Translations under genes and position numbers: made by a program
Notes under the pieces: generated by a model
The model's input: only the letters and a program-made list of their open reading frames with translations
Told to the model about the DNA's origin: nothing
Database searches by the model: none
Shown: positions 8,919 through 10,094 of the stretch, piece by piece
Layout of the letters: every line of letters begins with the position of its first letter
Numbering within the stretch: position 1 is the first letter of the stretch
DNA from: a virus
Taxonomy: Duplodnaviria > Heunggongvirae > Uroviricota > Caudoviricetes
Direction: 5' to 3' (one strand)
Virus record (IMG/VR): IMGVR_UViG_2541047718_000009
DNA length: 24,270 nucleotides

Positions 8919-9692
8919 TCAAAAATTAGGTGAGTAACGGACCGGGGACATAGCTCCTTTTTTTCTTAATTCATCTGGGATTTTTTTTCCAAGATAAAGA
9001 TTTGCTATTTCAGGTGGGGCTTCTCGACCTTCAAAACCATAGCGAGAACTTTGTGTTGCCTCAAAGTCCGGATCCTCGTCCCAGTATTTCATCGTAGGGA
9101 AATTTTCACGTGTTGATTTGAGCCATTTATCAGCAATGAAAACCCCTCGAACGATCCCCCTTACAGTAGCAAGAATGACTTCTGCTTGGCTGGCGCGAGA
9201 GACATTAATGCGCCAGCTAAATCGAACCGCATCATAAAGCTCTGAATCCTTTGCACTTCTGTTAACGGAAATCATTAATGCTTTATGATGAAATGTTATG
9301 GTTTCGGGTTGATATGTTGCTATCAACTCTTTGACATGTGCGGCGCCGAATTCATTGCTGCCAGCCCCATTCATGATATTCGTTAACCCAGGGTAGGCAT
9401 CAATAAGTGCTGCTTCAACTTCGTACGCCGTCTTTTCATCAGTCATTCCGTGTCGATGGATGACATGGATAACCTCAAGTCCTGCTAACCTTATTTCTCT
9501 AATTTGCTTTAGCTTGTTGCTCAGTAACTCGTCATCATCAGTCGCTGCCACTTCACCGCGCATATGGGCAAATACGCGGTTACCTTTGCCTTTCCCTACA
9601 TAGAAGGTGCTTCCGTCCCTCGGATCAATCAATCGGTATACATACCAGCCAAGGTGTTCAATTACTCCAGAAGGAAACTCAGTAATATCCAT
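8919..9692 (-). CDS. GIY-YIG nuclease-domain protein, function unknown
   Basis: The N-terminus carries [29 protein letters not shown], consistent with a GIY-(10-11)-YIG / YVG motif followed by R and H. The C-terminal ~170 aa are unrecognised. Start is uncertain: ATG at 9692 is used here, while the ORF track extends to a TTG at 9743. Confidence 0.55.
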
Positions 9693-10094
9693 TTTGCAAT
9701 ATCTATGAATTATTTGTGAGACGTATATTAATGAACATTGCAAGGGCTCACAACCAGTAGTGTTGAGAAAACTATCGGGTAAATGAGGCTAATCCTTTGA
9801 ATTTACATAGTAAAAAAAGATACTTTTCCTCATAGTGTGAATTAATTTTATGTTTCGTTTGATGATTGGACCGGTCTCGAAAACCGTAGGCACGTAGTAT
9901 GCGTTAATTTATGAGCAAACTACTTGTCTGCTGTTTTTCTGTCATTAGTCGTATATAGAATGATTCTCTATGCCTAACAAAGCATCACTAGTGCTAGATT
10001 ACGTTGTAGTCACTGTTTAAATATCCAGACAAAACATTTCCTTCTGGGTTGAATGAGTGATAGAGTTTCACCCATTAGACCCCTTGGAGGAATT

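Follow-up and report, generated by a model that had tools for sequence, protein, structure and literature searches.

PD-T4-3 was found in 2022 in Escherichia coli ECOR68 as a single validated defense gene of COG3680 (GIY-YIG), cloned with flanks of 189 bp and 33 bp, and an identical copy was recovered from another genome context (PMC9519451 supplement). The name PD-T4-3 does not occur in the main text of that discovery paper; the coordinates of the open reading frame and the clone are in its supplement (PMC9519451). Deletion of PD-T4-3 from the clinical isolate NILS69 makes the strain sensitive to two phages, and a PD-T4-3 plasmid in K-12 blocks four Tevenvirinae phages, among them a Dhakavirus, and does not block a Mosigvirus (bioRxiv 10.1101/2024.12.20.629700).

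Proteins of this family from E. coli O157:H7 and APEC O1 have been characterized under the name CMoRE (Liu et al., Nat Commun 2026; PMC12923530). CMoRE gives about 5 logs of protection against phages T2, T4, and T6. Cells grow normally at MOI >1 and T4 DNA is depleted while host DNA reads are unchanged, so the defense is direct and non-abortive, and the same behavior was reported for the ECOR68 gene (PMC12923530). T4(C) is resistant to CMoRE, whereas T4(hmC) is still sensitive. In vitro, CMoRE binds and cuts only 5hmC or 5ghmC DNA, not C or 5mC DNA, with Mg2+ or Mn2+. Cleavage follows the pattern CN11/N9G with 2-nt 3' overhangs, and two modified cytosines are required (PMC12923530). In the crystal structures, the N-terminal GIY-YIG domain most resembles UvrC and is joined through a flexible linker to a C-terminal domain with a novel fold, to which 5hm-dCTP binds. 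Two dimers assemble into a tetramer, and this assembly is required for defense. An acidic loop covers the active site, and its 4A mutant gains activity on ordinary DNA and is toxic (PMC12923530). Under its native promoter, the APEC O1 gene defended only weakly (PMC12923530).

Family identity of the nuclease gene

We analyzed a window of 24,270 nucleotides of Caudoviricetes DNA (IMG/VR record IMGVR_UViG_2541047718_000009), which matches the E. coli AR_0013 chromosome at 100% identity; the first ~13 kb are also identical to IAI39 and CE10. A preliminary description of this DNA had reported a GIY-YIG protein of unknown function beside a restriction-modification (R-M) system. The PADLOC model for PD-T4-3 (PDLC04031) matches this protein essentially from end to end, with model positions 1-255 of 256 aligned to residues 18-273 of the reading frame (E 2.7e-140, 464 bits). 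The O157:H7 CMoRE structures (PDB 9U75 and 9U8D; E 3.7e-172) are identical to it at 253 of 257 positions (98.4%), and the APEC O1 structures (PDB 9U7U and 9U7Z; E 1.1e-150) at 219 of 257 (85.2%), both alignments being gapless. The four substitutions relative to 9U75, with the window residue first, are T51A, E55D, Q169K, and N197H. E55 and N197 are common to the window protein and APEC O1, and T51 and Q169 occur in neither crystallized protein. An NCBIfam search with the protein gave no matches.

Because the PADLOC match is full-length, the identity to the two assayed proteins is this high, and the functional residues are kept (see below), we consider it very probable that the window gene is PD-T4-3, since renamed CMoRE, with the same modification-dependent defense as the near-identical proteins and independent of the adjacent EcoRII-type R-M genes. 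The label of unknown function is out of date, as the family has a published function and crystal structures. Among the roles that the preliminary description had proposed, that of a stand-alone defense nuclease was the correct one, since clones that carry nothing but PD-T4-3/CMoRE and its own promoter confer defense (PMC9519451 supplement; PMC12923530).

An exact-sequence cluster look-up placed the window protein on at least 1000 contigs. The ECOR68 accession was not among the cluster members listed, and identity with the original PD-T4-3 allele is thus not established. The family and its mechanism are already known, and the window allele is one of the most frequent in E. coli. The discovery value is small, given that the family was found in 2022, its modification dependence in 2025, and its structure and mechanism in 2026. 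The result is of use for annotation: the RefSeq name is only "LEM-3-like GIY-YIG domain-containing protein," and the C-terminal sensor domain is unnamed in Pfam and NCBIfam.

Gene model and composition

The open reading frame list gave an intact minus-strand frame at 8919-9743, 274 aa from a TTG at 9743. The frame is real, as had been claimed, and only its start has to be moved: the coding sequence almost certainly begins at the ATG at 9692. We prefer this start because five lines of evidence agree on it. The RefSeq coding sequence (WP_000355484.1) begins exactly there; the PADLOC model starts at residue 18 of the 274-aa frame; the N-termini of the crystallized proteins read MDITEF or MDINEF; the published numbering of Y17, Y19, and Y31 (PMC12923530) is compatible with this ATG only; and the original PD-T4-3 frame is likewise 774 nt (PMC9519451 supplement). 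The TTG start was rejected, and the extension that it adds lies outside the PADLOC model, the crystallized proteins, and the RefSeq coding sequence. See Table 1 for the coordinates of all features.

The gene had been called AT-rich, and it is moderately so: the GC content is 43.9% in the coding sequence, 49.5% in the window, and 56.2% in the adjacent tail genes. Its placement between a decayed invertase gene and an EcoRII-like R-M system, on the strand opposite to the methylase gene, was also borne out.

Table 1. Features of the window (positions count from its first nucleotide; residue numbers count from the ATG at 9692).
Feature	Position	Strand	Basis and remarks
PD-T4-3/CMoRE coding sequence	8919-9692	-	257 aa plus TGA stop (8919-8921); PADLOC, PDB, RefSeq
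GIY-YIG nuclease domain	9357-9692	-	Boundary approximate; PF22945, motif positions, homologue alignment
GWYVY	9636-9650	-	Within nuclease domain
YVG	9594-9602	-	Within nuclease domain
R39	9576-9578	-	Within nuclease domain
E93	9414-9416	-	Within nuclease domain
N105	9378-9380	-	Within nuclease domain
Putative acidic auto-inhibitory loop, D52-D53-D54-E55	9528-9539	-	"Safety catch" over the active site; sequence comparison
Predicted C-terminal modification-sensing domain, ~residues 120-257	8922-9335	-	Boundary approximate; includes Y127 (9312-9314)
5' extension of the listed reading frame	9693-9743	-	Most likely untranslated leader or promoter; non-coding
Upstream region inherited with the gene	9693-9890	-	End approximate; homology to genomes lacking the R-M genes stops at 9886-9902
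pinE 3' remnant (C-terminal HTH part)	8708-8858	+	RefSeq pseudogene 8715-8858; last ~150 bp only
m5C methylase, Dcm/EcoRII-type	10053/10095-11528	+	Pfam DNA_methylase and DNA_meth_N; NCBIfam PRK10458 (927 bits); PADLOC MTase_II
EcoRII endonuclease	11563-12777	-	Pfam EcoRII-N and EcoRII-C; PADLOC REase_II
P4-like satellite prophage at ssrA	~13029-23868		23-nt repeat of the 3' end of ssrA on either side (13006-13028 and 23869-23891, 87% identical)
ssrA (tmRNA)	23869-24231		

Domains and functional residues

Pfam identifies the N-terminal part as LEM-3_GIY-YIG (PF22945; E 2.4e-14; 54 bits, cut-off 27) at residues 45-127 of the listed frame, or 28-110 counted from the ATG. The GIY-YIG signature noted in the preliminary description is thus far beyond chance, although the domain is ~110 aa long and not ~90. 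The fold itself is taken from the crystal structures of the 98.4% identical protein, in which it is seen directly. The GIYxY-YIG motif is complete (G15-W-Y17-V-Y19 and Y31-V-G) and includes the three tyrosines for which mutagenesis has been published (PMC12923530). R39, E93, and N105 are invariant in an alignment with phage homologues of 33-46% identity, and R39 and E93 form the putative catalytic Arg/Glu pair of the GIY-YIG fold.

Residues 52-55 read DDDE in the window protein, DDDD in 9U75, and DDDE in 9U7U. They probably correspond to the published loop of four consecutive acidic residues, which the text of PMC12923530 describes without residue numbers.

The C-terminal half had been called unassignable. 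[quoted passage not shown] Over residues 120-257 the window protein differs from 9U75 at 2 of 138 positions (Q169K and N197H). The interface residues R80, V92, and L96 are present, as is Y127, and every functional residue named in PMC12923530 is kept.

By analogy with these structures, the C-terminal domain of the window protein would sense DNA carrying 5hmC or 5ghmC and pass over C and 5mC, and the N-terminal GIYxY-YIG domain would then cut between two modified cytosines, at a fixed spacing from them. The acidic loop over the active site would shield ordinary host DNA. T-even phage DNA is expected to be destroyed directly, with no abortive infection. The window allele, which differs from the assayed O157:H7 protein at 4 positions, would work like the O157:H7 and APEC O1 proteins. 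Its range of modifications may be wider than hmC and ghmC, if the homologue from Capnocytophaga, which also cut Mu DNA, is a guide.

Upstream region and expression

The gene lies in a decaying prophage and might be an inactive relic, its reading frame intact and yet silent, or crippled by the T51 and Q169 substitutions. The surrounding prophage is heavily degraded, with a truncated tape-measure gene, an IS3 fragment, and the pin remnant. A consensus scan of 8500-10200 yielded neither a terminator nor a promoter for the gene that was convincing, and inspection of the upstream sequence showed no Shine-Dalgarno sequence before the ATG. The best -35/-10 candidate by eye, TTGTGA-17-TAATAT at ~9753-9725, has 8 of 12 matches. 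Set against this, all tested functional residues are kept, and the occurrence of the exact protein on so many contigs, under the same accession in O157:H7, argues for purifying selection. Furthermore, ~200 bp of upstream sequence travels with the gene. We therefore regard an inactive relic as very unlikely and retain the reading of a working CMoRE gene. From the inherited upstream region we infer that the native promoter presumably lies within it, and expression in the window strain is assumed.

The neighboring EcoRII-type restriction-modification genes

The nuclease gene adjoins the methylase gene and is divergent from it across an AT-rich intergenic region of ~360-400 bp. The stretch 9744-10052 has no reading frame of at least 50 aa, and the intergenic region holds only one frame of 21 aa. 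This arrangement suggested that the nuclease could be a functional accessory of the EcoRII-type system, for example a second restriction subunit or a nuclease controlled by the methylase, and the three genes do occur as a single block in 244 E. coli genomes. The distribution of the gene speaks against such a link. Of 5426 complete E. coli genomes, 1188 have sequence that resembles the gene region (8600-10052), and 706 of these cover at least 80% of it. A 3.9-kb query that includes the R-M genes (8900-12800) has any match in 868 genomes, so that those 244 are the minority that carry the whole block. In an evenly spaced sample of the matches, 9 rows had the gene with the R-M genes and 20 had the gene only.

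The gene-only rows match the query from position 1 to 987-1003, that is, the gene and ~200 bp upstream, ending at window positions 9886-9902. Homology between the two contexts thus breaks between modules. In O157:H7 G5295, the identical protein (WP_000355484.1) is encoded directly after an intact pinE, and an AraC-family gene replaces the R-M genes; in strain YPE12, an intact pinE, the CMoRE gene, and the R-M genes are all present. Gene-only clones defend in BL21(DE3) (PMC9519451 supplement; PMC12923530), and the published CMoRE systems are all single-component (PMC12923530). An accessory role is highly improbable on this evidence. Because most carriers lack the R-M genes and the gene is active alone in published clones, the R-M system is best seen as a separate module joined at the same cargo site, and we infer that CMoRE acts independently of it.

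EcoRII cuts unmodified CCWGG DNA. Given this specificity, CMoRE and EcoRII are complementary in their targets. Since 5mC DNA is neither bound nor cut by CMoRE, the neighboring m5C methylase should not turn host DNA into a substrate. An m5C methylase and a type IV enzyme that ignores 5mC can thus be neighbors without conflict.

Homing and toxin functions

A free-standing GIY-YIG homing endonuclease (I-TevI or Seg type), spreading by cutting a specific empty site, would account for the GIY-YIG domain and for the differing genomic contexts of the gene. In addition, homologues of 38-39% identity in the jumbo phages OBP and N1M2 were deposited as "putative homing nuclease." These labels, however, are depositors' guesses. 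The preliminary description had named homology to a homing endonuclease of an intron or intein as a refuting finding, and there is no such homology. There is no intron or intein at the locus, where the gene is chromosomal prophage cargo, and the Pfam search gave nothing C-terminal to the GIY-YIG domain, hence none of the known DNA-binding modules of homing enzymes. Published cleavage depends on base modification, with two modified cytosines needed, no long recognition site, and host DNA left untouched (PMC12923530). A homing function is extremely improbable, and the defense nuclease CMoRE remains our reading of the gene.

It is likewise hardly credible that the product is a toxin or an abortive-infection nuclease, killing the cell under attack. 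Nucleases carried as prophage cargo frequently do work by abortive infection, and the engineered 4A loop mutant is toxic, but the published defense is direct, the wild-type enzyme spares host DNA and growth, only the mutant without the acidic loop is toxic (PMC12923530), and that loop is intact in the window protein.

Homologues in phages

Full-length two-domain homologues of CMoRE, at 33-46% identity, were seen in Serratia phage Moabite (retrieved locus 2501-3265), Pseudomonas phage OBP (2492-3253), and Escherichia phage PhiR41_1 (2456-3223). Those in lytic jumbo phages are annotated as "homing nuclease" or "endonuclease," and one homologue is encoded beside parA in an E. coli phage of 108 kb. 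The phage proteins keep YxY...YxGKG, R39, E93, and N105, without conservation of the DDDE acidic stretch. They may have a role in phage-phage competition.

Prophage setting and the slot after pin

The nuclease gene belongs to a decayed e14/Mu-like prophage at ssrA, whose right end holds the EcoRII R-M genes, CMoRE, the pin remnant, and genes for an acyltransferase, tail-fiber assembly, a tail fiber, baseplate, and a truncated tape-measure protein. Against the intact pinE of O157:H7 G5295, only the last ~150 bp align cleanly, and genome hits with an intact pinE begin at 8708.

An Acyl_transf_3 acyltransferase gene (7494-8519, minus strand; flanks to ~8707; 31.6% GC) stands where related prophages have the invertible tail-fiber segment and the 5' three quarters of pinE. 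This gene may be cargo that modifies surface polysaccharide. The tail-fiber frame at 6107-7057 (plus strand) is intact and encodes 316 aa, with an StfP-like N-terminus and a match to Gly_rich_2 (E 2.2e-10) over the C-terminal 200 aa. RefSeq calls only 6107-6413 of it, as a truncated pseudogene. The product looks like a chimeric fiber.

In K-12 MG1655, mcrA lies directly after pinE of e14 (retrieved locus 6686-8180), and in O157:H7 G5295 and YPE12 the slot after pinE holds CMoRE (retrieved loci 6405-7793 each). Different enzymes that recognize modified DNA thus occupy the site downstream of pin. The related genomes G5295 (retrieved locus 11897-13597) and YPE12 (13265-16179) also have genes that RefSeq names "ABC-three component system" beyond CMoRE, and this prophage end is therefore a variable defense island.

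It is possible, although we lean against it, that the pin-downstream end of e14/Mu-like prophages is an exchange slot for type IV enzymes (McrA in K-12, CMoRE here), to which the EcoRII R-M genes were added in about a quarter of carriers, the pair then covering unmodified and hypermodified cytosine DNA, and that the homologues in the lytic jumbo phages Moabite, OBP, and N1M2 are weapons against co-infecting phages with modified DNA. The exchange-slot reading, if true, leaves the identity of the gene itself unchanged. Two observations may go beyond the literature: CMoRE shares McrA's slot after pinE, and full-length homologues occur in lytic jumbo phages.

P4-like satellite at ssrA

Beyond the R-M genes, the window contains a P4-like satellite prophage. 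In IAI39 this element is missing and ssrA follows the R-M genes directly. The satellite encodes an integrase (22497-23729, minus strand), Psu, Ogr/Delta, an alpha-type primase-helicase (13514-15847, minus strand), a DEAD/ResIII helicase, and the C4 and isrK RNAs.

The gene for the DEAD/ResIII helicase (20657-22465, plus strand; 602 aa; ~35% GC) is flanked by psu and the integrase gene, a position known as a defense hotspot of P4-like satellites. The protein has only weak PADLOC matches, to PbeA and to the helicase part of a type IV mREase (E ~1e-16), and no Pfam domain was found in its C-terminal ~200 aa. It is a possible uncharacterized defense gene.

Two 120-nt direct repeats (13168-13287 and 13348-13467) lie just downstream of the primase gene, 82% identical and with starts 180 nt apart. 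Their layout is presumably that of the P4 cis replication region (crr). Rfam matches above the gathering score, both on the minus strand, are C4 antisense RNA at 17298-17385 (76 bits) and isrK at 17493-17570 (72.5 bits), and together we take them to mark the immunity RNA region of P4-like elements.

Comparison with known systems

The slot after pinE at the end of e14-type prophages is shared with EcoKMcrA of K-12 e14, an unrelated protein encoded on the opposite strand relative to pinE and without a sequence match to the window protein. McrA is an HNH nuclease, not a GIY-YIG nuclease, and has another modified-cytosine specificity. The N-terminal domain of UvrC and the LEM-3-type GIY-YIG domains lack three elements of CMoRE: the extra tyrosine Y19, the acidic insertion of 15 residues that lies between helices 2 and 3, and the unrelated C-terminal sensor. 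The function of CMoRE is defense and not repair.

PD-T4-3Capno, the Capnocytophaga homologue, belongs to the same family and is a modification-dependent nuclease. It degrades DNA of T4 and not of T4-GT7, and active-site mutants abolish its defense (PMC12366544). Its published identity of 48% is to PD-T4-3, not to the window protein (PMC12366544). It also cuts Mu DNA, which carries carbamoylmethyl-adenine, and its specificity may exceed that of the E. coli proteins (PMC12366544).

The closest counterparts are the CMoRE/PD-T4-3 proteins of O157:H7, APEC O1, and ECOR68 (RCO27183.1), which have the same length of 257 aa and whose genes likewise stand alone, each with an upstream region of its own. 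The window protein has the same motif, acidic loop, interface residues, and Y127 as the O157:H7 and APEC O1 proteins. Unlike the characterized CMoRE genes, the window gene is paired with an EcoRII R-M system and lies beside a truncated pin gene.
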